Origin: an uncultured archaeon
GTDB taxonomy: Archaea > Asgardarchaeota > Lokiarchaeia > Sigyniarchaeales > SOKP01
Direction of reading: 5' to 3'
DNA length: 25,704 nt
Assembly (NCBI GenBank): GCA_964525635.1
Contig: CAZGJX010000058.1
Coordinates: 1 to 25,704 of the forward strand
Notes under the pieces: generated by a model
Told to the model about the DNA's origin: nothing
Database searches by the model: none
Seen by the model: only the letters and a program-made list of their open reading frames with translations
Made by a program: the position numbers and the translations under genes
In this document: piece by piece, positions 2,398-15,531 of the stretch
How the letters are laid out: the number at the start of each line of letters is the position of its first letter
How positions within the stretch are numbered: the stretch's first letter is position 1

Positions 2398-2937
2398 ATG
2401 ATAAAAAATGAATTTAAAAAATCAATTAATAGAAAAAAAACCATTAAATATATCTTATTGAGTCTATCTTTAACTATCATAGTTTTCACAGGATTAAGCT
2501 CTAATGTCATGGCTGCTTCCTGGGGTTATCCTACAAGTGTTAAAATCTATAAGGGCTGGGATGGAGATGGATTTACAATAGATAGCTTTAGAGCCCCCTA
2601 TGATGACGATTACCTTGAAATTTCCGGTCTGTGTGGTGGTATTACATATGAAATTAACTTCAAGATCTATTTCCCCCAATTAGATAATTCAATTTGGAAT
2701 CCCAATAGAATACGAATATATTACCAGTTTCATGGATATGGTACTTTAGATATTATCTTAACTGGGAAGTTTGAAGGAGCAGATACAACAGTTGTATATA
2801 CGGTTTGGTGGACTAGTTATGGATTATATTCATTCAAATTTCCTGATGAAATGATTTTAGAAAGCGTACAATTTAAAAATCTAGAATATTGGTATCCTGG
2901 AGAAGTGTTAATTGATTATTTAATAGTATCATATTAA
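2398..2937 (+). CDS. Hypothetical secreted protein
   Basis: 179 aa; basic N-terminus, hydrophobic core and NVMA|AS signal-peptidase-like site; the mature part is aromatic/beta-rich; GGAG upstream. Confidence 0.75.
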   Translation: MIKNEFKKSINRKKTIKYILLSLSLTIIVFTGLSSNVMAASWGYPTSVKIYKGWDGDGFTIDSFRAPYDDDYLEISGLCGGITYEINFKIYFPQLDNSIWNPNRIRIYYQFHGYGTLDIILTGKFEGADTTVVYTVWWTSYGLYSFKFPDEMILESVQFKNLEYWYPGEVLIDYLIVSY

Positions 2938-3109
2938 ATAATTAAAGAAAATTCAGTTAATTGATATATCTTTAAAAATCTTTTTTTTTTACTAATAAAT
3001 TTTTGGAAAAAATGGAGAGATTAGTAATTACCAGATTAAATTCTCCATTTTCAAAATTTCGATTTTTCTTTATTATAACTCTTAAAATCAAAGTTTTTAT
3101 TGAGTGTTT

Positions 3110-3184
3110 TTTTTCACTTCATGAACATTTCATGAATAAAGATCGTGAAATAACCCTTTTACGATTAGAAGGTTATATCACGAT
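3110..3184 (+). repeat. Copy 3 of intergenic TTCATGAA repeat with an adjoining 14-bp inverted repeat
   Basis: tttttcac ttcatgaa cat ttcatgaa taaaga tcgtgaaa (3110-3150). atcgtgaaataacc (3142-3155) and ggttatatcacgat (3171-3184) are 13/14 reverse-complementary. Confidence 0.85.
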
Positions 3185-3211
3185 ATGATTAGGATATTAT
3201 ATTAAAAAAAA

Positions 3212-4306
3212 TTATACTTGTTTAAAATAACCAATAATCCGATTCTTATTCTGAAATTTGTTACTATCAAATATTAATCCTTTTAAACCAGTTTGATCGT
3301 GATACATCTTTTTCTCAAATCTAATTTTGATTTTTCCAATTTTTCCAGGAGAAATTTCATCTCCCTCAACAATTTTGAAAGGAGAAGTTTTTAAGTCAAT
3401 CAACGCAGTATATTGAATTCCATCTTTAGAACTAATCTTATTTCCTTTTGGGTTATAAAATTGATTAATATATGTATCTGCCCAGATCTCTTTTTCATAT
3501 TTAAAACTTCCCTGTGATACCAAAAGATTATCTCTACTTATTTCATTAGCATTTATATTTCCTTTTAATGATAGCCCAACTCTATCCCCTCTATAAGCAT
3601 CTTTAAAATCTCTATCATGTTTTTGAATACTTCTAATAATTAATTTCTTTTCAGGTCCCTCTGAGCCAATTAATTCAAGCATTTGTCCAGCATTTAAATC
3701 CCCTTTTTTTATTAATCCTAATATAACTGTACCAATACCTTTAACGGGAAAAGAATGGTCTATTAAAATTTTAATATAGTGAGAGTTCTCATTGTGTATT
3801 TTATTAAACTCAATGCCAATTTCTATTACTTTTTTCTTAAGTGTTTCATAATCATCTTTAGTTTTTAATAAAAATATTTCTGTATTCTTAATATCTGTTG
3901 TTAAAAGTATTTTCATTAGTTTTTCTTTTATTTCTACTAATTTCCAGCTATTTTTATCAGTAATATTTGTTATAACAATCAATGGCTCTGAATTATAGAG
4001 TTGATGAAATATATCTAATCCAATTAGAGATTCTCCAATTACAGAATTTAAACCAATTTCTAGATCAATAACTAGAATATGGATATCAGATAATTCTAAA
4101 GTTTGTAAGAATGGTTTTATCTTTTCAGGATAATTAACAGGAGCTAATGCACAAAATACTTGATTTAATTTTGAATCTAATCGATTATAAAATTGAATAT
4201 CTGATTTTGTACCTGGAGCACCAAAAGCTTGTCCGATTAGATTATTCTGCTCAAAATTTTCTCCAATTATTCCTATAACAAATGTATTTTCATATTGTTC
4301 ACTCAT
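3212..4306 (-). CDS. SelB-like / EF-Tu-like translation factor homologue with a degenerate G domain (aSelBL type)
   Basis: EF-Tu/SelB domain II motifs IDHSFPVKGIGTVILG, IRSIQKHD and GDRVGLSLKG. The P-loop position reads GIIGENFEQNNLIG (no GxxxxGKT) and the NKxD position reads TNITD. Confidence 0.85.
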   Translation of the reverse strand: MSEQYENTFVIGIIGENFEQNNLIGQAFGAPGTKSDIQFYNRLDSKLNQVFCALAPVNYPEKIKPFLQTLELSDIHILVIDLEIGLNSVIGESLIGLDIFHQLYNSEPLIVITNITDKNSWKLVEIKEKLMKILLTTDIKNTEIFLLKTKDDYETLKKKVIEIGIEFNKIHNENSHYIKILIDHSFPVKGIGTVILGLIKKGDLNAGQMLELIGSEGPEKKLIIRSIQKHDRDFKDAYRGDRVGLSLKGNINANEISRDNLLVSQGSFKYEKEIWADTYINQFYNPKGNKISSKDGIQYTALIDLKTSPFKIVEGDEISPGKIGKIKIRFEKKMYHDQTGLKGLIFDSNKFQNKNRIIGYFKQV

Positions 4307-4431
4307 TTAGAAATCAAATGCAGGATTTTTCATATATTTAATGGAAAATTAAAAACAAGAAAAAAATAAAAGATAAAATTATATTTTAAGTTATAGAATT
4401 AAGATTTTATTATAATGAGATTATTTTAAGA

Positions 4432-4697
4432 ATGGAAAAAGATTATATTATAATTCCTGCTTCAGAGAAGCACGTCAAAGGTATCCATAATGTATTTTTT
4501 CATCTTTTATAAAATATCATGATTTTTATACTCCTAAAGCATTTAAAGATACAACATTATCTGAGGAATGGGTTAAAGAAAAACTAAAAATAATGAAAAT
4601 ATATATCGCAATTACAGAAAAAGGAACAATTATTGGTACTATTGGTTGACAAAAAATAAGTAGAGAAGAAGGCCATATAAGATATACTCAAAGTTAG
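4432..4697 (+). pseudogene. GNAT-family acetyltransferase pseudogene (frameshifted, nonsense, truncated)
   Basis: MEKDYIIIPASEKHVKGIHNVF, then a frameshift in the T6 run at 4495-4500, then SSFIKYHDFYTPKAFKDTTLSEEWVKEKLKIMKIYIAITEKGTIIGTIG-TGA(4647-4649)-QKISREEGHIR. This matches the N-terminal half of a GNAT fold; the acetyl-CoA motif A is missing. Confidence 0.7.
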
Positions 4698-4954
4698 TGA
4701 TAAGACAACTTTTTTTATCACATATTTCTTAAGAAAATCATCCCATCTTTTTTTCTTATAATTCAAAAAATTAATCTGAAAACAATTTTATAATACTATT
4801 AATTTTTTTTTCTAATTTTTCCAAATTCGTTTATAAAATATTCAAAATAAATAATTAAATGAACTAGTCAAGAGGAAATTGTATTTTTTAAAAATATTTT
4901 TATATGAGATATTTTAAATTATTATTCACCAAAAGTCAGAAAAAAGGTGATTAT

Positions 4955-6013
4955 ATGTTTGAGAAATTAAAAACATATTTATATATGACAGGTACAGTTT
5001 TAAAACTTGGAGGTTCTTTAAAGAAAATAAGCCGTGATATATATAACTTTTATAAAGGTAATGTAATTAGTGTCTTAGGTGAAGAAGGTGAGGATTGGTT
5101 TAATTATCTTACCGCTCCAAGAACTATAGATGAGATTACTGAAAACTTTGGTTATACAGATAGTATATTTCTTCAAGACATCTTAGATATTTTAACCGAG
5201 GATAATATGGTTAATAAAAAAATGTCTAAATACCAAACTATAGGTGAAGTTAAGGGAAACGGGGCGATACCTCAAGTATTTAATGAATCTGCTGTCGATG
5301 TTTTAACTAGTTTTGCTAAAGCGATTCCAAGGCGATTAAAAGGGGATTATCCGAGTTTTTCTGAAGGTTTTGAATTATTTAATTGGGATGACACATTAAG
5401 CCTCAAGATGTACGAAATTCAAAGAAGATCATCTTTTATATTTTCCAAGGCTCTAAATTATAAAGGTAAATTACTTGATGTCGGTTGTGGAAATGGCTTC
5501 GGTACTACATTAATCTGGAGCTACTATGAAAAAAAGAAATGCTTTTATCCAGGAACCAAAATGGAAATCTTCGCTCTTGACCCTAATGAGGAATTCTTAG
5601 ATATTGCTAAAAACGAATTTGAACTGCGCTTAAAAACGCATTTGAATTATAGTAAAGACCAAATCGAATCATTACGCCCTTATTTTCCAAAAAAATTTGA
5701 ATTGGGCTCCGTTACGGATATGCCTTTCGAGGATAATACTTTTGATATCGTATATATCTCACAAGTTCTTCACTGGACAGATTCGCTGGCAGGATTAAAG
5801 GAGATAGTTAGAGTGACCAAACCAGGGGGTTTAATCTTCGGAAGTCAAGTACTTATACCTTTTGCAAATAAATATATAGACCTCCATATTAGAACAATAA
5901 AGGGTGCACAGGGGTTCTTTACTAAAAAAGAGTTCTTAGAATTCATTAATGAAGCGGGTGGAAAAGATATAAAAACCGCAACACCCGTAACATGCTTTAA
6001 GTTTACAAAATAA
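4955..6013 (+). CDS. Class I SAM-dependent methyltransferase with an N-terminal wHTH-like region
   Basis: Motif I LLDVGCGNG, ALDPNEEFL, MPFEDNTFDIVY..QVLHW, RVTKPGG. Start placed at ATG 4955 behind an AGGTGA SD (the ORF track starts at 4904). Confidence 0.9.
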   Translation: MFEKLKTYLYMTGTVLKLGGSLKKISRDIYNFYKGNVISVLGEEGEDWFNYLTAPRTIDEITENFGYTDSIFLQDILDILTEDNMVNKKMSKYQTIGEVKGNGAIPQVFNESAVDVLTSFAKAIPRRLKGDYPSFSEGFELFNWDDTLSLKMYEIQRRSSFIFSKALNYKGKLLDVGCGNGFGTTLIWSYYEKKKCFYPGTKMEIFALDPNEEFLDIAKNEFELRLKTHLNYSKDQIESLRPYFPKKFELGSVTDMPFEDNTFDIVYISQVLHWTDSLAGLKEIVRVTKPGGLIFGSQVLIPFANKYIDLHIRTIKGAQGFFTKKEFLEFINEAGGKDIKTATPVTCFKFTK

Positions 6014-6170
6014 CTCAAAGATTTAATTTGAGAAGGTTAATATTTCAGAATTTCAACACACCAGATATTAATTTACTTATTCTTTTTTTTTTTTATTATC
6101 TTGGGACTAATAACAACTATTATTTTTATACAAAATCCACACAATCAATTCATTTAGTTCAGTTCTTTAA

Positions 6171-7355
6171 TTATTCAAATAGTTTTCTTCTGTTGATAAA
6201 ATCATAAATTTCGATAAATTGTTCTAATTGACTTAAAATTCCTCTTTTGTTTAAAAAATCAATTAAACTCATCTCTTGGTTGAAAAATTCCTCTAAGATT
6301 TCTCTTTCTATCTTAAATGCTGAAGTTAATCGATCTATAATCCGAGGAAGTCTCTCTTTGTATTTTATTTGAATTTTTGAATATAATAAATCATCATCAA
6401 TTAATCTCTGAATTACAGGTATTTTATCAAGAGTAATTTCTTTTTCATTAAAATATTCATTAATAGTTAAAATTCTTGGACATTTAGAAATTAAATAATC
6501 TAAACTATGACTTTTTTGGGTTAATTTTTCCATCAACGGATTTACCCAATAAAGATTGTTATCATTTGTTAATTTATAACAAATTATATTTGAATTTAAA
6601 ACTCTCAATTGAAACTCTTGATCTGCTACTGAAATCTTTAGATATTTTTGTACTTCTGAATATACCTTTTTAGCCTCTTGGATTTTTTCATATAATAGAG
6701 AAGTTAATTGAATTGCATTTATTGAAGGAATACATACCATATCATAGATCCAATGGTCTGAAATATTAAAGATGATAAATAGATTAAAGATAGTATGTTC
6801 TTTTAAAGTTTCATGTGTTAATCCAGAATATCTATAAAATTGTTGAGTCGTACCCAGTTCTTTATTTGTATATTCCTCTAATTTTATTTTACTTGAACTT
6901 AATTGATCATAATATCTTCCAGTTTTATCTACAAAAACGTTATTAATATGTAACTCATTTTTAAAATAATGAGCAACTTTATAAAGTAAAAATTCTTTTC
7001 CAAAAAAAATATTACGCGAAATATTTTCAAGATATGAATTTTCATCATCAATTCGAAATCTAATTTTAGCATTACATAATTGACAATTAAAATTTGTTTC
7101 TTTTATTCCATCTATTAGTTCAAAATCAACTTTCTGATATCCACGTACCTTTAAATTATTATCTATATATAGTTGGAATTGATGATTACAGATTGAATCT
7201 TTTGGGATTGATATTGTTGTCAAACCTTTTGGTTTTAATATATCTCTTGGAATATGAATAAATTTACTTGCTTTACAAATTGGGCAAGCAATTATAACAT
7301 TCCCTATGTCATAATCTTCTTTATTTAGTAATATATTGTTATCACTCATCTTCAT
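6171..7355 (-). CDS. Hypothetical protein with two N-terminal putative Zn-binding modules
   Basis: CPIC...CNHQFQLYID...VRGYQ followed by a second module CQLC...H...HINNVFVD. No recognisable catalytic domain. Confidence 0.75.
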   Translation of the reverse strand: MKMSDNNILLNKEDYDIGNVIIACPICKASKFIHIPRDILKPKGLTTISIPKDSICNHQFQLYIDNNLKVRGYQKVDFELIDGIKETNFNCQLCNAKIRFRIDDENSYLENISRNIFFGKEFLLYKVAHYFKNELHINNVFVDKTGRYYDQLSSSKIKLEEYTNKELGTTQQFYRYSGLTHETLKEHTIFNLFIIFNISDHWIYDMVCIPSINAIQLTSLLYEKIQEAKKVYSEVQKYLKISVADQEFQLRVLNSNIICYKLTNDNNLYWVNPLMEKLTQKSHSLDYLISKCPRILTINEYFNEKEITLDKIPVIQRLIDDDLLYSKIQIKYKERLPRIIDRLTSAFKIEREILEEFFNQEMSLIDFLNKRGILSQLEQFIEIYDFINRRKLFE

Positions 7356-7604
7356 TCAATTTTTATGTATATTTTTATATTTAATTTTAAAATGTAATTG
7401 TGGAGTTATTAATGAAAAGAATTCCATTACTCCTAAATTGATCTCTAAAATTATCTATTACTCATATTTAAAAATGATAATATCAAAGGTCTTTGTCTTT
7501 GTTAAATAAAATTTAACTATAAATCTAATAAAAATATACATTTTTATACTTTTCCTCAATTATCATATGAAAAAAAAGAAAATTATATATATTACGAAAT
7601 TTTA

Positions 7605-9161
7605 TTATAGAGTGTTTTCGATTGAATTAAACATCAATTTTAATTTTTCATAGATTTCCATTCTATAATTCTCACCTATCCTAAATGACAGAAGAGATAT
7701 CTTTTTTTTTTCTATAAAGTCGTTAATATTAAAATCTCTCATGAAATTCGACCAATCAGTATTTTCATCAATTTGAAATCCTATTAATACAACTTTTTTC
7801 TCTTTAATCTGTTCTAAAACAGTTAATATTGCCTTTTTCCATTTTGAATCTAAATCTTTTCTATTTCGTGCATCAAATAAACAAAATACAGCATCAGAAT
7901 CATCAATTTCTATATTTTCTAAAAAATAATTTTTTAGAATTAATCCATTTTTATATTCATAGATGAGGTAATTAGATTCTTCCTTAGTATAAGCTAAATT
8001 TTGATTACCAGCAATTTTTGCTAAAATTTGTAATCCTGGACTCCATATTTTATTCTCAGTTATGAATGAAATTGTTAGTTTCTTTTCCAAAGTAAGTATT
8101 AATTTCAAAATCTCATAAATTTCATTCTTTGATATTTTTTCCTCAAATTCTTTATTTTTGAGAATGTAATGATATGAAATTAATCTAAAAGCATCAATAA
8201 TATTATCACCAGATAAAGCACTTGTTTCTATGTAAGAAATAGTTGAAATACCTTTAGTTGATAATTTTTTTGTAATTTCTACTCCTTCTTGATATTCAAC
8301 TTTTCTTGATTCCTTTAAATCTAATTTATTACCTATAACAACAACTGAAAGATGATCTGTATCTATAAAGTCATTTAATTCATTATACCAATTAATGACA
8401 TTATCATATGTTTCTCTATTAGTTAAATCAAATACGATAAAAACAGCTTGGCTATTTTGATAATAAGTTTTTCGAACTTTTTCATAATCTTTTTGTGCTC
8501 CCAGATCCCATATAGCTATATCTAGTTCATTACCAAAAAAAGTCATATTATGAGATACGATATTTAGACCAATTGTTGCTCGATAATCATGAGTAAATTT
8601 ATTTTCCGTAAAACGTCGTACAATGGATGTTTTACCTACTCCAGCATCGCCAATAATTATGAATTTATATCTATAATTCTTACCTAAATCTGGTCTTGAT
8701 TCGTATATTTGGTTTTTCAATATTTCCTTATTTTTTATATCAAAATCAAATTTAGGAATTGATAATTCAATAATATCTCCTTCATTCATATATAAAATTT
8801 GGGCTATTTTTTCAGCTAAAAAATAAGCATATGCATTAACTTTATCGATTGATGCATATGATTTAGTAATTATACATAAGGCAATATCTTTATTAATAGA
8901 AATAAATATTATTGTATTATTTTTATTTTCATATACAGCAGTACCAAATTTGTTAAATTCAAACTCTTCAATTATTACAGCTAAAATATGTTTCACAAGA
9001 GACGAATAATCAACAGTTGCATCATCTTTAATCTCTTCCCTTTTTTCTTCAGAGATTATTTGATTATTTCTACTGTATAATATTATTTGTTCAGTATCAT
9101 CATTAATCTTAAAGAAATTTTCACATAATTCTTTAAAAAATAAACTGAGATTTTTTGACAA
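7605..9161 (-). CDS. Roadblock/longin-like domain + Rab-like small GTPase + C-terminal degenerate GTPase-like domain (paralog A)
   Basis: G1 GDAGVGKTS, G2 YRATIG, G3 WDLGAQ, G4 GNKLD, G5 ETSAL. N-terminus homologous to the roadblock of 15532-17088 but diverged. TTG start. Confidence 0.9.
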   Translation of the reverse strand: MSKNLSLFFKELCENFFKINDDTEQIILYSRNNQIISEEKREEIKDDATVDYSSLVKHILAVIIEEFEFNKFGTAVYENKNNTIIFISINKDIALCIITKSYASIDKVNAYAYFLAEKIAQILYMNEGDIIELSIPKFDFDIKNKEILKNQIYESRPDLGKNYRYKFIIIGDAGVGKTSIVRRFTENKFTHDYRATIGLNIVSHNMTFFGNELDIAIWDLGAQKDYEKVRKTYYQNSQAVFIVFDLTNRETYDNVINWYNELNDFIDTDHLSVVVIGNKLDLKESRKVEYQEGVEITKKLSTKGISTISYIETSALSGDNIIDAFRLISYHYILKNKEFEEKISKNEIYEILKLILTLEKKLTISFITENKIWSPGLQILAKIAGNQNLAYTKEESNYLIYEYKNGLILKNYFLENIEIDDSDAVFCLFDARNRKDLDSKWKKAILTVLEQIKEKKVVLIGFQIDENTDWSNFMRDFNINDFIEKKKISLLSFRIGENYRMEIYEKLKLMFNSIENTL

Positions 9162-10865: not shown

Positions 10866-11093
10866 TTATATTTAAAGAAAAAAGTGCGACAAGTAAGTCT
10901 GATGTCCGAATACAGGACTTGAAAAAGAGTATGTAAAAAGGTAATTTTCAAAAACTGGTATCAAGATGACTGATAATGGCTATCCAAACATGCATCATTA
11001 GTAATGATGATGTGTGAAGCTCTGGAGACAATGTACTTTCTGCACTTAGCTATAAAGTGGTCTAGAAAGACTAGCCAAGGAACCTATGGGAAA

Positions 11094-13320
11094 ATGCGGC
11101 GGAGAAAGCTTTCATATGGAATCCGAAAGGCCGTGGAGTTAGAACATGAGTGGCAGTTGTGCGGACTCATACCCAAAAGGTATGGGATCTAAAGCATGCA
11201 CAGCAATGTACCGATTCTGCTAACCCTTCAAGCAGATAGGGCTAGCCAAATGAACCTAAGGTAAACGAAAGTGAACCTGTGCTTAAAGCCTCGTGAAGGC
11301 TAGGCTGTGAAAAAGGGTTGATACGCAGCCGAACCAAAAGAAGGTAATGACGCTGAGAACATGTAGTTTTCCCTTACATGTTTATCTAACTAATGGCGTC
11401 CGGGGTAGAGCAGGTACCTAAGGGTTCAGTAATTATCCATATGATAGAACTCTGTAAAGTCTCCACGCGCAAAGGTGTAGGGAGATAGAGATGAGGCGGA
11501 AGCGAAAGACTCCGGTAATATGGAGGATAGGGTATATACCCAACCAAAAGGTGGCTGACTGCCTCTGAACTCAACGGAAATGAAATTATAGGAATATTTC
11601 TAATGGAAGGAGGACGTGAGACAAAATGAAAGGTTTTGTACGGACCAACCAGCAGGTGCAAGTTGAATGGGACCGAGTGAATTGGACCCAGGTCAAGCAT
11701 CAGGTCGAAATATTACAACAAAAGATTTTCCGAGATACTCAGAAAGGTGACTTTAGAGCTGTGAATCAGTTCCAAAAGTTACTGGTAAAGTCGCTTTCTG
11801 CGAGGTTATGGGTTGTATATCTCACTACTGAGGTTAACTCCGGGAGAAGTACACCCGGTATGGATGGTTGCCTTTACAAGACAACCAAAAAGAAATTGGA
11901 GCTCGTGGAAAGTTTAAAACTCAAGAAATATAAACCTAATCCAGTGAAAATTGTATGGATCCCGAAACCAAGTGGAGGTAAAAGGAAACTGGGAATTCCA
12001 ACAATTCGAGACCGCGCCATGCAGGCATTAATCTTGCTGGCAATGGATCCGGAATGGGAAGCTAAGTTTGAACCCCATAGCTTTGGGTTTCGACCTGGTA
12101 GATCTGCAATTGATGCGGTTTATCATATCTGGACTACAATAAGGTCTTATAAGGGACGCAAACCTCATCCAGGATGGGTTTTTGATGCCGATATTTCAAA
12201 CTGCTTTGATAATATTGATCATGAAGCTCTATTGACAAAGCTCAATGGAAGTTCATTTAAAAAGATAATTAGAGCATGGTTGAAATGTGGAGCGATTAGT
12301 GGGATTGGCTTTGAAAAGACAGAAAAGGGTACTCCTCAAGGCGGTGTAATTAGCCCTCTTTTGGCAAACATTGCCTTGGATGGTCTTGAGCGACAGTTCG
12401 GGATATATACTCGAACGGGTAATTACAAAAAGCCATCTGTACGAGGAGGCCAGGATAAGAATGTAGCATTTTTTCGATATGCTGATGACTTTATTATCCT
12501 TGCACCATCAAGGGAAGTTATTGTAAATTATATAATCCCTAAGGTGAAAGACTTTCTCTTTAAAGTAGGTCTAAGTCTTAATGAGGGAAAGACTCGTATA
12601 GTAAATGTATCTGACGGATTTAAATTTCTAGGATTTCATTTTAGAAGATTTTACCGTCGAGATGGTACTATTAAAGAGTCGATTTACTCCCCAAGTCGGG
12701 AAAGACTGGATCGCTTCATAAGAAATTTGAAGGTATATTTAAAACTCAATTGGAATGTGGACGTAAAGGACATAATTAAAGGTCTAAATAGGCGCATTAG
12801 AGGTTTTTGCAATTATTTTAGATGGAGTAATGCTCATAAAGCATTTTCCTATTTATCCTATAGACTTTGGGAATTGATGTGGTCATGGGCTAAGAAACGG
12901 CATCCTAGAAAAAGGGGTCGAAAATGGATTCGGGACCACTATTGGATGACGATTGGTAATATTAATTGGGTGTTCTCTTATCAAGGAGTTCATCTGATAG
13001 TACCATATAATTTAACAGTTCAATGGTGGAAGCGACCTAAGGTCAGGATATATGCGAGTCCATACGACCCAAAAGCAATAGAATACTGGCGAATTCGGCA
13101 ACAAAGAGCATGGATGAATAGAGTTTAGTTTAGTGAATTTATTGACTTCTCTCCTATAGTTGGTGGATTGGTGACATGAAGCTCACGGGAGGTATCCGAG
13201 AGGATCCCTCAAAGGAGACATGGTGACATGTTACTGAGTACTTGGGGACTGAGCCCCGTGCGATGAAAGTCGCACGCGGGGTTCTGATGAACAGGGGAAG
13301 TGATACTTCCCCTGATTCTT
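11094..13320 (+). mobile_element. Inner group II intron (IIB, CL1-like) nested in domain I of the outer intron
   Basis: 5' ATGCG. DI stems gcggag 11099-11104 / ctctgt 11450-11455 and tcatatgga 11112-11120 / tccatatga 11436-11444. alpha agttaga 11137-11143 / alpha' tctaact 11385-11391. EBS1 tttccc 11368-11373 / IBS1 gggaaa 11088-11093. J2/3 AGA 11489-11491. Canonical DV gagccccgtgcgatgaaagtcgcacgcggggttc 13251-13284. DVI with bulged A 13315. The 3' end is uncertain by 1 nt. Confidence 0.9.
11626..13128 (+). CDS. ltrA: Group II intron reverse transcriptase/maturase of the inner intron (RT0-7 + X, no HNH endonuclease)
   Basis: TPGMDG, IPKPSGGKRKLGIPTIRDRAMQ, SFGFRPGRS, DADISNCFDNIDH, GTPQGGVISPLLANIAL, RYADDF, FLGF, X-domain LN..IRGFCNYF. 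Ends shortly after SPYDP..EYW. Confidence 0.97.
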   Translation: MKGFVRTNQQVQVEWDRVNWTQVKHQVEILQQKIFRDTQKGDFRAVNQFQKLLVKSLSARLWVVYLTTEVNSGRSTPGMDGCLYKTTKKKLELVESLKLKKYKPNPVKIVWIPKPSGGKRKLGIPTIRDRAMQALILLAMDPEWEAKFEPHSFGFRPGRSAIDAVYHIWTTIRSYKGRKPHPGWVFDADISNCFDNIDHEALLTKLNGSSFKKIIRAWLKCGAISGIGFEKTEKGTPQGGVISPLLANIALDGLERQFGIYTRTGNYKKPSVRGGQDKNVAFFRYADDFIILAPSREVIVNYIIPKVKDFLFKVGLSLNEGKTRIVNVSDGFKFLGFHFRRFYRRDGTIKESIYSPSRERLDRFIRNLKVYLKLNWNVDVKDIIKGLNRRIRGFCNYFRWSNAHKAFSYLSYRLWELMWSWAKKRHPRKRGRKWIRDHYWMTIGNINWVFSYQGVHLIVPYNLTVQWWKRPKVRIYASPYDPKAIEYWRIRQQRAWMNRV

Positions 13321-13740
13321 GCGACAGTGAAGATGCGATAAACCTCGTTATTAAAAATCGGCGAAATATAGCTGATACGCCGAGACCAAAATGGTGAGTT
13401 GCCGGGTAGGAATGGTTTTTTTTCATTCCTTTGTCATCCATTGCGCAACCGGGGGAAAGCATCTCCCTAAGGGTTCTGTTGAACGTCGGATATTGGGAAC
13501 TTGGTAAACCCAACAAACCCCATACACGCAGGTGGAATGGTATCCCGACCGTGAGGAAGGGGGATGGTTTAGTGGGTAGAGGATGCTGGAAGAAGCGAAT
13601 GCCATGCTGTAATGGCATGGATAGGGCTGTAGTAACGCGCGAACTACAGGGATACCCCGCCCGAAAGGGTGCTGACTTCCTAAGCAGGTCTCAACGGAAG
13701 AAAAGTATTGAAAAATCTTAACCGGAGGTGAAGTTAGACG

Positions 13741-15240
13741 ATGTGTGAAAGCATTGAACAGAACAAGGGACATGTGGTGGAGTGGGATGATATCCAATGG
13801 GATAAAGCCCGCCGACATGTAAGACGGCTTCAAGAACGGATCTTTCGAGCAACCCGTGAGAAGGACTTTGCGAGGGTGAAAAACCTTCAAAACCTCCTTG
13901 TCAGATCACGTTCTGCACGACTTTTGGCGGTTAAAAGAGTCACGCAGGAAAATAAAGGCAAAAACACGCCGGGAATTGACGGAAAGATTTACACTACTTC
14001 GAATCAACGAGCTGAATTGGTAAATGACATCTGTCAAACCAATATTTTCAGTTATAAATGTAAATCGCTCAGGAGAGTATACATTCCAAAGAATCGCGGA
14101 GACAAGCGTCCTTTAGGCATTCCAACGGTCAAGGATCGAGCCATGCAGATGCTCGTGAAATTGGCATTGGAACCTGAATGGGAGGCTCGGTTTGAATCGC
14201 ATTCACAAGGTTTCAGACCGGGACGCAGGTGCATGGATGCAATTTGGCAAATCTGGAATTCCATTCGAATCTCAGGGGTTCAACAGAAGAGTGAATGGAT
14301 TTTAGATGCGGACATTTCAGGGTGTTTTGATAATATTAATCATGATGCATTGCTTAAAAGAATTCCCGTGTTTCGGGAAACGGTGAGAAGATGGCTTGAA
14401 TCGGGAATAATTGAGTTTGGAAAATACTTCCAAACCAAATCAGGCACGCCACAGGGCGGAATTATAAGTCCCTTGCTTGCTAACATTGCCTTAGATGGAA
14501 TGGAAAGGCTCTTTGGGGCGGAGAACTCCAAGGGGAGCTATACAACACCATCAAATAGAAGGGGTGAGAACTATAAGCTTAATTTAATTCGATATGCTGA
14601 CGATTTTGTGGTGACAGCACCATCAAGAGAGAGAATCGTTGATTACGTGCTTCCTAAGCTTCGAGCCTTTCTTAAGGAAAGAGGTATGAAGTTGAATGAA
14701 GCTAAAACCAAGATTATCCATCGAAATGAAGGTTTTTACTTTCTGGGATTCACGATCCGACAGTTTCACAACCGAGCGAGAAGTGTGTGCTTGGCAAAAC
14801 CGTCTAAAAAGGCGATTAAAAGCCATCTACAAGGCATTAAAATGGTAATTTCAGGAAATAAGCAGGTAAAAGCAGATGAACTCATCTCCTATTTAAATCC
14901 GATTATTAGGGGTTGGGCAAACTATTACGTATACAGTAGCGCCAAGGAAACGTTTAATTACATTGACTATCGGATTTGGAAAATGTTGTGGCAGTGGTGC
15001 TTACGACGTCATCCGAGAAAAGGAAAATTATGGATTCGGAGGTGTTATTTCATGAATATTGGAGATAAGAAATGGATTTTCGGTGAAAGAAAAGAGAATG
15101 TATTGTTATTTACCCGCTCTTTTCGGGCAGGAAGACGGTATACACCTGTTAAAGGATATAATAGTCCTTTTGATGCGAATTTACATGAGTATTGGAGTAA
15201 AAGACATGGTAAAGCTTGGCGTGAGACAACGCCGATGTGA
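13741..15240 (+). CDS. ltrA: Group II intron reverse transcriptase/maturase of the outer intron (no HNH endonuclease)
   Basis: TPGIDG, IPKNRGDKRPLGIPTVKDRAMQ, GFRPGR, DADISGCFDNINH, GTPQGGIISPLLANIAL, RYADDF, LNPIIRGWANYY. GGAGGTGA SD at 13724-13731. Confidence 0.97.
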   Translation: MCESIEQNKGHVVEWDDIQWDKARRHVRRLQERIFRATREKDFARVKNLQNLLVRSRSARLLAVKRVTQENKGKNTPGIDGKIYTTSNQRAELVNDICQTNIFSYKCKSLRRVYIPKNRGDKRPLGIPTVKDRAMQMLVKLALEPEWEARFESHSQGFRPGRRCMDAIWQIWNSIRISGVQQKSEWILDADISGCFDNINHDALLKRIPVFRETVRRWLESGIIEFGKYFQTKSGTPQGGIISPLLANIALDGMERLFGAENSKGSYTTPSNRRGENYKLNLIRYADDFVVTAPSRERIVDYVLPKLRAFLKERGMKLNEAKTKIIHRNEGFYFLGFTIRQFHNRARSVCLAKPSKKAIKSHLQGIKMVISGNKQVKADELISYLNPIIRGWANYYVYSSAKETFNYIDYRIWKMLWQWCLRRHPRKGKLWIRRCYFMNIGDKKWIFGERKENVLLFTRSFRAGRRYTPVKGYNSPFDANLHEYWSKRHGKAWRETTPM

Positions 15241-15531
15241 TCATTTCCAATAGAGAAGTCCGAGGTGACTTGGGCGGTCTCGGAGGGATTGTGAGAAGCA
15301 TGAACTAATGGAACACGGTGACGTGTACGGGTTCTTGGAGCGCGAGCCCTGTGCAGGGAAACTTGCACGCGGGGGTCCTAAAAGAGGAAGAGGACGGTAA
15401 CATCATCTCCTTATTTAACGAAAAAAGAAAAAAGAAATTGAATATTTTGAATGGATTTTTAATTCTTAAAATTTAATTCCTAATAGAAGCAATTATTTAC
15501 TTTAAGTACTTTATTTATTTATTTTTCTGGT

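Follow-up and report, generated by a model that had tools for sequence, protein, structure and literature searches.

A group II intron with predicted AUGCG and UG termini, nested in a related group II intron of a Sigyniarchaeales archaeon

Among the few near-universal bases of group II introns are the first nucleotide, G1, and the AY dinucleotide at the 3' end, which mutational work ties to the second step of splicing (PMC4238363, PMC4028801, PMC4424553). The consensus sequences of the nine classes all end in a pyrimidine, none of them in G (PMC4028801, Additional file 1), and in RmInt1 of Sinorhizobium meliloti, a class D intron ending in CC, nucleotide 1 is taken to contact the penultimate base, with the final one acting as gamma' (PMC4238363). 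Splice sites that depart from GUGYG...AY are described for fungal rRNA IIB1 introns, for C.te.I1 and for class B introns with a domain VII, and the review in question cites Dai & Zimmerly 2003 among reports of altered 5' or 3' termini (PMC4424553). Nesting of archaeal group II introns is already established in Methanosarcina acetivorans, where introns home site-specifically into other introns and form multi-level nests without coding exons (PMC4424553), and the Asgard group II intron study covers maturase proteins alone (bioRxiv 10.1101/2024.12.10.627823). Here, we describe a nested pair of group II introns within a 25,704-nt stretch (hereafter, the window) of an uncultured Sigyniarchaeales archaeon (contig CAZGJX010000058.1, assembly GCA_964525635.1), whose inner member at positions 11094-13321 is predicted to begin with AUGCG and to end with UG. 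No report of AUGCG starts or of a terminal G was met in the literature searched, Dai & Zimmerly 2003 and Simon et al. 2008 being outside that search; while the nesting is known, the termini of the inner family are thus taken as new, at some risk that they have been noted before.

The architecture of the locus, with all its features on the plus strand of the window, is that of a twintron. Rfam recognizes two domain V/domain VI (DV/DVI) modules, at 13249-13322 and 15342-15419, and a match to domains I-IV (D1D4-7) at 10958-11097, whereas the list of open reading frames (ORFs) contains two reverse transcriptase (RT)/maturase genes of 500 aa each, encoding the intron-encoded protein (IEP) of the inner intron (11626-13128) and of the outer one (13741-15240). 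The 5' segment of the outer, or host, intron (10884-11093) starts with GUGCGACAAG and includes the D1D4-7 match, and its 3' segment (13322-15419) holds its own IEP ORF and a DV/DVI module ending in ...UUAUUUAAC. Three uninterrupted outer-type introns (loci L022, L038 and L040) align to the 5' segment without any gap up to ...CCTATGGGAAA and continue across the junction as CCTATGGGAAA|CGA(C/G)AGTGAAG, again gap-free against the window from which 11094-13321 has been removed; L040 is identical to the window across the junction. The insertion point lies in domain I (DI) of the related outer intron, and it is the joined outer DI that these three relatives match. Stretch 11094-13321 is, therefore, a complete group II intron nested in another, related group II intron. 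Its length of 2228 nt, 5'-AUGCG...UUCUUG-3', follows from the uninterrupted relatives, from a reading frame at locus L121, from the insertion sites of copies L116 and C36, and from the covariation of exon-binding site 3 (EBS3) with its intron-binding partner (IBS3). Very likely, it is a retromobile intron of the IIB, CL1-like type, residing in the conserved DI segment GGGAAA|CGACAG. So far, the inner-type lineage is seen in Asgard-type archaeal assemblies.

The comparison of inner-type introns was made on 20 distinct copies, several of them related by descent. Two come from the genome of the window, namely the window copy itself and a broken copy on contig C36 with an insertion sequence (IS) in DI and most of the ORF deleted. 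Other genomes of the same order contributed L019 (= L119, L120, L134), L020, L021, L033 and L136, and contigs with the closest IEPs contributed L034, L035, L114-L118, L121-L125 and L138. An IEP-alignment search of metagenome contigs, driven by generic RT motifs, gave 2 family members among the 80 loci listed, and genome contigs searched with the single inner IEP gave distant bacterial matches only.

The 5' end of the inner intron is set by its pairing with the exon. EBS1, UUUCCC (11368-11373), occupies positions 3-8 of a 9-nt loop (11366-11374), in a register that is fixed across the family alignment, with U11367 beside it at the conserved delta position. It pairs at six of six positions with IBS1, GGGAAA (11088-11093), which are the last six bases of the 5' exon, and the pairing extends up to the 5' splice site as in other group II introns. 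Across 17 aligned copies, with a sequence differing at nearly every site, EBS1 and the six bases that lead directly into RUGCG form pairs at 100 of 102 positions; setting each EBS1 against the 5' exon of another copy gives 43 on average and 63 at most. Moreover, the window reads GGGAAA|AUGCGG where the uninterrupted outer-type relatives read GGGAAAC, so the fourth A of the run, A11094, is intronic. The original prediction had already placed the 5' end at A11094 on the strength of the UUUCCC/GGGAAA pairing, and both the window and its relatives bear this out.

As a result, the first intron nucleotide (A11094) is A instead of the consensus G, a feature shared by a large part of the family. Position 1 is A in 8 copies (the window copy, C36, L115, L116, L020, L124, L125 and L033) and G in 11 (L019, L021, L034, L035, L114, L118, L121, L122, L123, L136 and L138) of the 19 whose first base is known, and the two copies in the genome of the window both belong to the A1 group. 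In an IEP tree (FastTree, rooted with the outer IEP), the window copy, L115 and L116 form an A1 clade, which is sister to a G1 clade of L114, L118 and L121; L020 and L124 form a second A1 clade, and L125 and L033 branch separately. Together with the ORF-less C36 copy, the members of the first clade are spread over four sites, and at every one of them the EBS1 has a sequence to match; for this reason A1 RNAs appear to have been excised and reverse-spliced repeatedly. We therefore read A1 as a variant that is tolerated and inherited and has arisen several times, neither an error nor decay.

The RT/maturase encoded by the inner intron in domain IV (11626-13128) combines RVT_N, RVT_1 with a YADD motif and GIIM/X domains (Pfam PF13655, PF00078 and PF08388) without an endonuclease domain, and it has thousands of homologues. 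The few close homologues that bear a name are labelled Sigynarchaeota, Lokiarchaeota or Promethearchaeota, in keeping with an Asgard host, the more distant matches include cyanobacterial IEPs with an endonuclease domain, and in metagenomes the family extends to dozens of IEP clusters at 52-75% identity. The intactness of DV and of the ORF, asserted in the original prediction, was confirmed. The inner intron is probably active, and copies at different sites with matching EBS sequences suggest that it is, or has been, mobile.

The strongest challenge to the reading of A1 as a tolerated variant is that this base disables or strongly weakens splicing, so that the window copy would be a splicing-defective passenger in non-essential intron DNA, with its relatives copied in another way or mobilised in trans. 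Such a defect would agree with the presence of G1 in the GUGYG consensus of all nine bacterial classes (PMC4028801, PMC4424553), with the location of many A1 copies in other introns or in intergenic DNA, where there is no host selection for splicing, and with the state of three A1 copies: L033 has stop codons, L020 a deletion in DI, and C36 is broken by an IS. Yet the A1 clade is found at four sites with an individually diverged EBS1 match at each of them, the IEP genes of A1 copies are full length, and the window ribozyme keeps all conserved blocks, its helices being maintained by compensatory changes. The ratio of nonsynonymous to synonymous substitutions (dN/dS) of the IEP lies at 0.08-0.13 for A1-A1 pairs and does not differ from that of G1-G1 pairs, which also speaks against a defect, albeit these values of about 0.1 are rough, since dS is saturated (>1). 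This saturation weighs against A1 as a functional variant, as do the moderate support for the A1 clade (0.91, SH-like), the fact that some A1 copies are dead (the decayed L033 and L020 with about 130 nt of DI deleted) and the predicted, sequence-derived status of the splice junctions, the lariat and the branch point. Taking both sides together, we consider a crippling effect of A1 improbable and retain A1 as a tolerated variant.

L020 (genome G013; A1) is peculiar in that it lacks about 130 nt of DI present in its close relative L124, yet has a full-length IEP ORF; it may act as a maturase or RT source without a ribozyme of its own.

The 3' end required a correction. The original prediction had the intron ending at U13320 and named 13321 beforehand as the boundary that would contradict it. 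Judging from five lines of evidence, the inner intron ends at G13321, one base further, with a 3' tail UUG (13319-13321) in which U13320 is the penultimate and G13321 the last intron nucleotide. First, L022, L038 and L040 align gap-free with the window once 11094-13321 is taken out, and the conserved G is missing from all four uninterrupted insertion-site homologues. Second, L121 lies antisense in an N6/N4 DNA methyltransferase gene, where excision of GUGCG...CUUG restores a 332-aa frame ...LSEFYLWHDTIIWDK, in agreement with the intact-site homologues of this gene that read ...IW(Q/E/T)(E/D)TIIWDK (the W is present in four of the five, the fifth having a TAG stop there), whereas excision of GUGCG...CUU breaks the reading frame. 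Third, two other outer-type intron sites are occupied by copies: L116 lies between GAGATGA and CCGATAATGG in an outer-type intron, the corresponding place in the window's outer intron being AAGATGACTGATAATGG, and the C36 copy lies between GGTAAACCCAAT and AAACTCCATAC, with uninterrupted sequences reading GGTAAACCCAACAAACCCCATAC; the flanks of both fit the uninterrupted sites only with G as an intronic base. Fourth, among the 18 copies with an unambiguous 3' end, 17 have the terminal G, while the base that follows it is C, A or U.

Fifth, this following base covaries with EBS3. The EBS3 base of the inner intron is G11408, the G in GGGGUA-G-AGC within a DI internal loop, and it pairs with C13322 (IBS3), the first base of the 3' exon, as expected of IIB introns of class CL1. 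Among 16 insertion events with a clear 3' end, the EBS3 base and the base after the terminal G form a Watson-Crick pair in 14, and a G.U wobble is found in L138. All three kinds of pairs are represented, with G-C in the window copy, L115, L116, L020, L124, L122, L123 and L035, U-A in C36, L118, L121 and L019, and A-U in L034, L117 and L136. The EBS3 proposed earlier, C11401 pairing with G13321, does not hold, because C11401 belongs to a CCGGGG block that stays constant whatever the target.

Placing both ends one base earlier, at the same intron length, was tried as well and rejected: the junction base then mismatches the uninterrupted homologue in every test, the W conserved in the intact homologues of the L121 gene becomes S, and the base before RUGCG is not conserved.

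A model ending at U13320, with the branch A at -6, a 2-nt tail, EBS3 C11401 paired with G13321 and A1/U13319 as a compensating pair, is very improbable in light of these data. It does give the gamma base (A of the AGA in J2/3, see below) a canonical partner in the terminal U, and the ends of L021, L124, L034 and L136, which read ...AUG, would become a canonical AU with G counted as exonic. However, it has to explain why G is missing from the four uninterrupted homologues and is kept whatever the target, why EBS3 covaries with the base after G while C11401 sits in the conserved CCGGGG block, why the methyltransferase frame is broken with a U end, and why the G1 copies have the same UU. The end at G13321 has its own difficulties: EBS3 and IBS3 are mismatched in 2 of the 16 insertion events (L114 and L021), a control on the same EBS3 column of outer-type relatives gives Watson-Crick pairs in just 3 of 6, and a gamma A calls for a Watson-Crick partner U, yet the last base is G. 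Sequencing or assembly errors at 11094 or 13319-13321 of the metagenome-assembled genome, a 245-contig draft, have next to no probability, given that A1 and UUG recur in the C36 copy and in independent assemblies (A1 in L115, L116, L020 and L124; CUUG in at least 10 copies); the same sharing of A1 and UUG disposes of the private decay or error that G at 11094 or an AY end in sister copies was to reveal.

Domain V (13251-13284; Rfam RF00029, 51.2 bits against a threshold of 40) forms the 34-nt hairpin known from group II introns, including the AGC triad, the bulge of 2 nt and the GNRA loop; in an alignment of 16 copies, 99% of its cells are paired and compensatory changes occur. With the end at G13321, domain VI (13289-13318), whose helix is 96% paired, has an invariant bulged A13315 and a basal helix GAA/UUC of 3 bp (13289-13291 with 13316-13318), followed by the 3-nt tail UUG. 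Taken together, DV and DVI are 97.8% paired across the 16 copies and 11 pairs change on both sides, whereas sliding the partners by one column lowers the pairing to about 50%. The basal pairs of DVI covary, with A-U replaced by G-C in C36 and L116, and G-C by A-U in L034. A13315 is 7 nt from the end (-7), within the 7-8 nt usual for the distance from branch A to the 3' splice site, and outer-type relatives have the same DVI layout with a tail AAC or GAC. The branch-point geometry, as judged from these alignments, is therefore an ordinary one (branch A at -7, helix of 3 bp, tail of 3 nt), and the shifted register (branch A at -6) of the original prediction arose because the 3' boundary had been misplaced by one base. 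Its 4-nt linker between DV and DVI (13285-13288) stands, and its 2-nt tail gives way to the 3-nt UUG.

The junction J2/3 (11489-11491) is AGA, as had been claimed, in contrast to GGA in the outer-type relatives, which have a terminal C. Its first base, A11489, corresponds to gamma by homology with the outer-type GGA and is invariant in the family, two copies of which have ACA. This gamma A would either form a non-canonical A.G contact with the terminal G or pair with U13320 at -2.

The group II terminal consensus GUGYG...AY is, thus, replaced by AUGCG...UG in the window copy and by RUGCG...NUG in the family, in which positions 2-5 (UGCG) conform, U takes the place of the consensus A at -2, and G that of the final pyrimidine. 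The tails are CUUG in 11 copies, CAUG in 4, CGUG in 2, UAUG in 1 and CAAG in 1, the decayed L033 having CAUU and L125 being ambiguous. The miniaturised L136 (G010:C252; minus strand), a G1 derivative of about 700 nt without an ORF, retains the UG end; it ends CAUG|U, and its EBS3 A matches this U.

The original prediction was right about a penultimate U, which is U13320 instead of U13319, and wrong about a terminal U, the last base being G13321. Its proposal of compensation between A1 and the penultimate U finds no backing in the relatives. U stands at -2 in 10 of the 11 G1 copies, most of them with a UUG tail, and the eleventh (L123) has A at -2. U occupies -2 in all A1 copies whose 3' end is known, and the sole A(-2) copy is G1, an association that agrees with a purine-U contact yet is far from significant. 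A search of DI-DIII for a compensating partner of nucleotide 1 gave no column in which A1 and G1 copies differ by more than the noise of the target-specific EBS1 loop, and none of the 3'-tail positions tracks A1 against G1. The N-U-G end and gamma A are seen in the alignment as traits of the whole family, with no penultimate change tied specifically to A1, and U at -2 may make either purine acceptable at position 1. It is conceivable, though rather unlikely, that the tertiary contacts have been rewired, from the canonical, non-Watson-Crick G1-A(-2) to a purine-U contact (G.U or A-U) and from the Watson-Crick gamma-gamma' pair, G-C in the sister lineage, to an A opposite the terminal G, giving termini RU...UG, or GU...AG in L123. 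If true, a purine-U contact between 1 and -2 would make G and A interchangeable at position 1.

Set against described introns, the inner ribozyme fits the CL1/IIB pattern except at its ends, an assignment made from the ribozyme sequence. Compared with the consensus of the bacterial and archaeal CL1 class (chloroplast-like 1, IIB1; Abebe et al. 2013, PMC4028801), its RUGCGRCnnAG..AAGyy conforms to GUGCGACnnG..AAGyyGy apart from nucleotide 1, and its DV, GAGCC...GAAA...GGUUC, conforms as well. Further similarities to CL1 are EBS1 in a terminal loop, EBS3 in a DI internal loop, a branch A 7 nt from the 3' end and an IEP with RT and X domains. The differences concern the 3' end, CyU-A-CCCG-AC in the consensus compared with UUC-UUG here (N-U-G in the family), as well as gamma A, A1 in 8 of 19 copies, and the 4-nt DV-DVI linker. 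RmInt1, in contrast, keeps G1 and a last pyrimidine that pairs with a purine gamma, while the last base of the inner family is itself a purine; moreover, a penultimate U is among the substitutions of RmInt1 most defective in the second step (PMC4238363), whereas in the inner family U is the normal state. Introns with shifted sites splice 1-33 nt upstream or 50-70 nt downstream of the canonical motifs, with structures lost or gained (PMC4424553). The splice sites of the inner intron, on the other hand, are in the canonical positions and just the identities of the terminal bases differ.

In U12-type AT-AC spliceosomal introns, the RNA starts with AU, the branch is A(2'-5')A, and the first and last bases change together, A going with C. 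The AU start of the inner intron is alike, an analogy without a claim of homology; in contrast to the spliceosomal case, A1 and G1 members of the inner family share the same 3' end and show no covariation.

A splicing path compatible with these assignments can be proposed. The inner intron would have arrived by reverse splicing into the DI segment GGGAAA|CGACAG of a related intron, creating the twintron. Pairing of EBS1 (11368-11373) with IBS1 (11088-11093) would define A11094 as the first base of the intron, the bulged A13315 would attack the 5' splice site through its 2'-OH to give a lariat with an A(2'-5')A linkage, and pairing of EBS3 (G11408) with C13322 would set exon ligation after G13321. 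Ligation would restore the outer DI, and the outer intron could then fold. Splicing, mobility and the chemistry of each of these steps are predicted here from sequence comparison.

The findings have practical and conceptual consequences. Tools that find intron boundaries rely on G1 and an AY end, and consensus-based annotation would misplace the 3' boundary of this family by one or two bases, as both the original prediction and the Rfam alignment did. Bearing the marks of ongoing mobility and of selection on the IEP, the family is a natural set of variants with which to test what contacts hold the intron ends in place. If the rewiring were true, it would be a natural, evolutionarily tested case of end bases changing their identity in a group II-type core and, occurring in the archaeal group closest to eukaryotes, would bear on the origin of the GU-AG and AU-AC rules. 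Finally, the Asgard-type occurrence brings detail at the RNA level into a discussion hitherto based solely on maturase proteins (bioRxiv 10.1101/2024.12.10.627823).

Nesting is not limited to the window, with further examples at L019, L134, L125 and L138. The C36 locus of the window's genome (L014; about 2500-8200, minus strand) is a nest of group II introns in partial decay, in which three or more DV modules are recognizable. It includes the inner intron's sister copy, which an IS of about 1.5 kb (inverted ends ATGTCATTAAGTTAAG, duplicated CCCGTAAGGGCA) interrupts and which has lost most of its ORF. This locus is a multi-level nest of the same sort as those of Methanosarcina; what differs from the latter is that the targets here are ribozyme segments, namely DI sites, the DV/DVI junction and the EBS3 loop. 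In L019/L134 (5' flank ...GGUUCCAAAAAG|), family members are inserted at the DV/DVI junction of other introns. In L125, a second intron begins directly after its DV, and an unrelated intron ending ...UUCGAC also sits at a DV/DVI junction. L138 (1-173, 2412-2444) is a G1 member that interrupts a second copy from its own family in the EBS3 loop region (CCCGGGGUAGAGCAGGC|), meaning that the family also invades itself.

Two copies are associated with coding-like sequence. L035 (1-89, 2261-2812; G1) is sense-oriented between two open GC-rich, coding-like stretches. Joining its exons at ...CUUG| gives a longest frame of 183 codons, the other frames being open too and Pfam giving nothing for the downstream exon; the site may be a host gene dependent on splicing. 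The methyltransferase gene split by the antisense intron occupies L121:376-3588 on the minus strand. The window's genome itself has five N6/N4 DNA methyltransferase copies, 67-76% identical (contigs C15, C27, C130, C150 and C115; L126-L131), some of them with in-frame stops, and this repetition suggests a multi-copy mobile element or provirus. As for the outer intron of the window, its 3' exon is a (GAAAAAA)n tract (15420-15445), and its EBS3-equivalent base, A, does not pair with the G that begins this exon.

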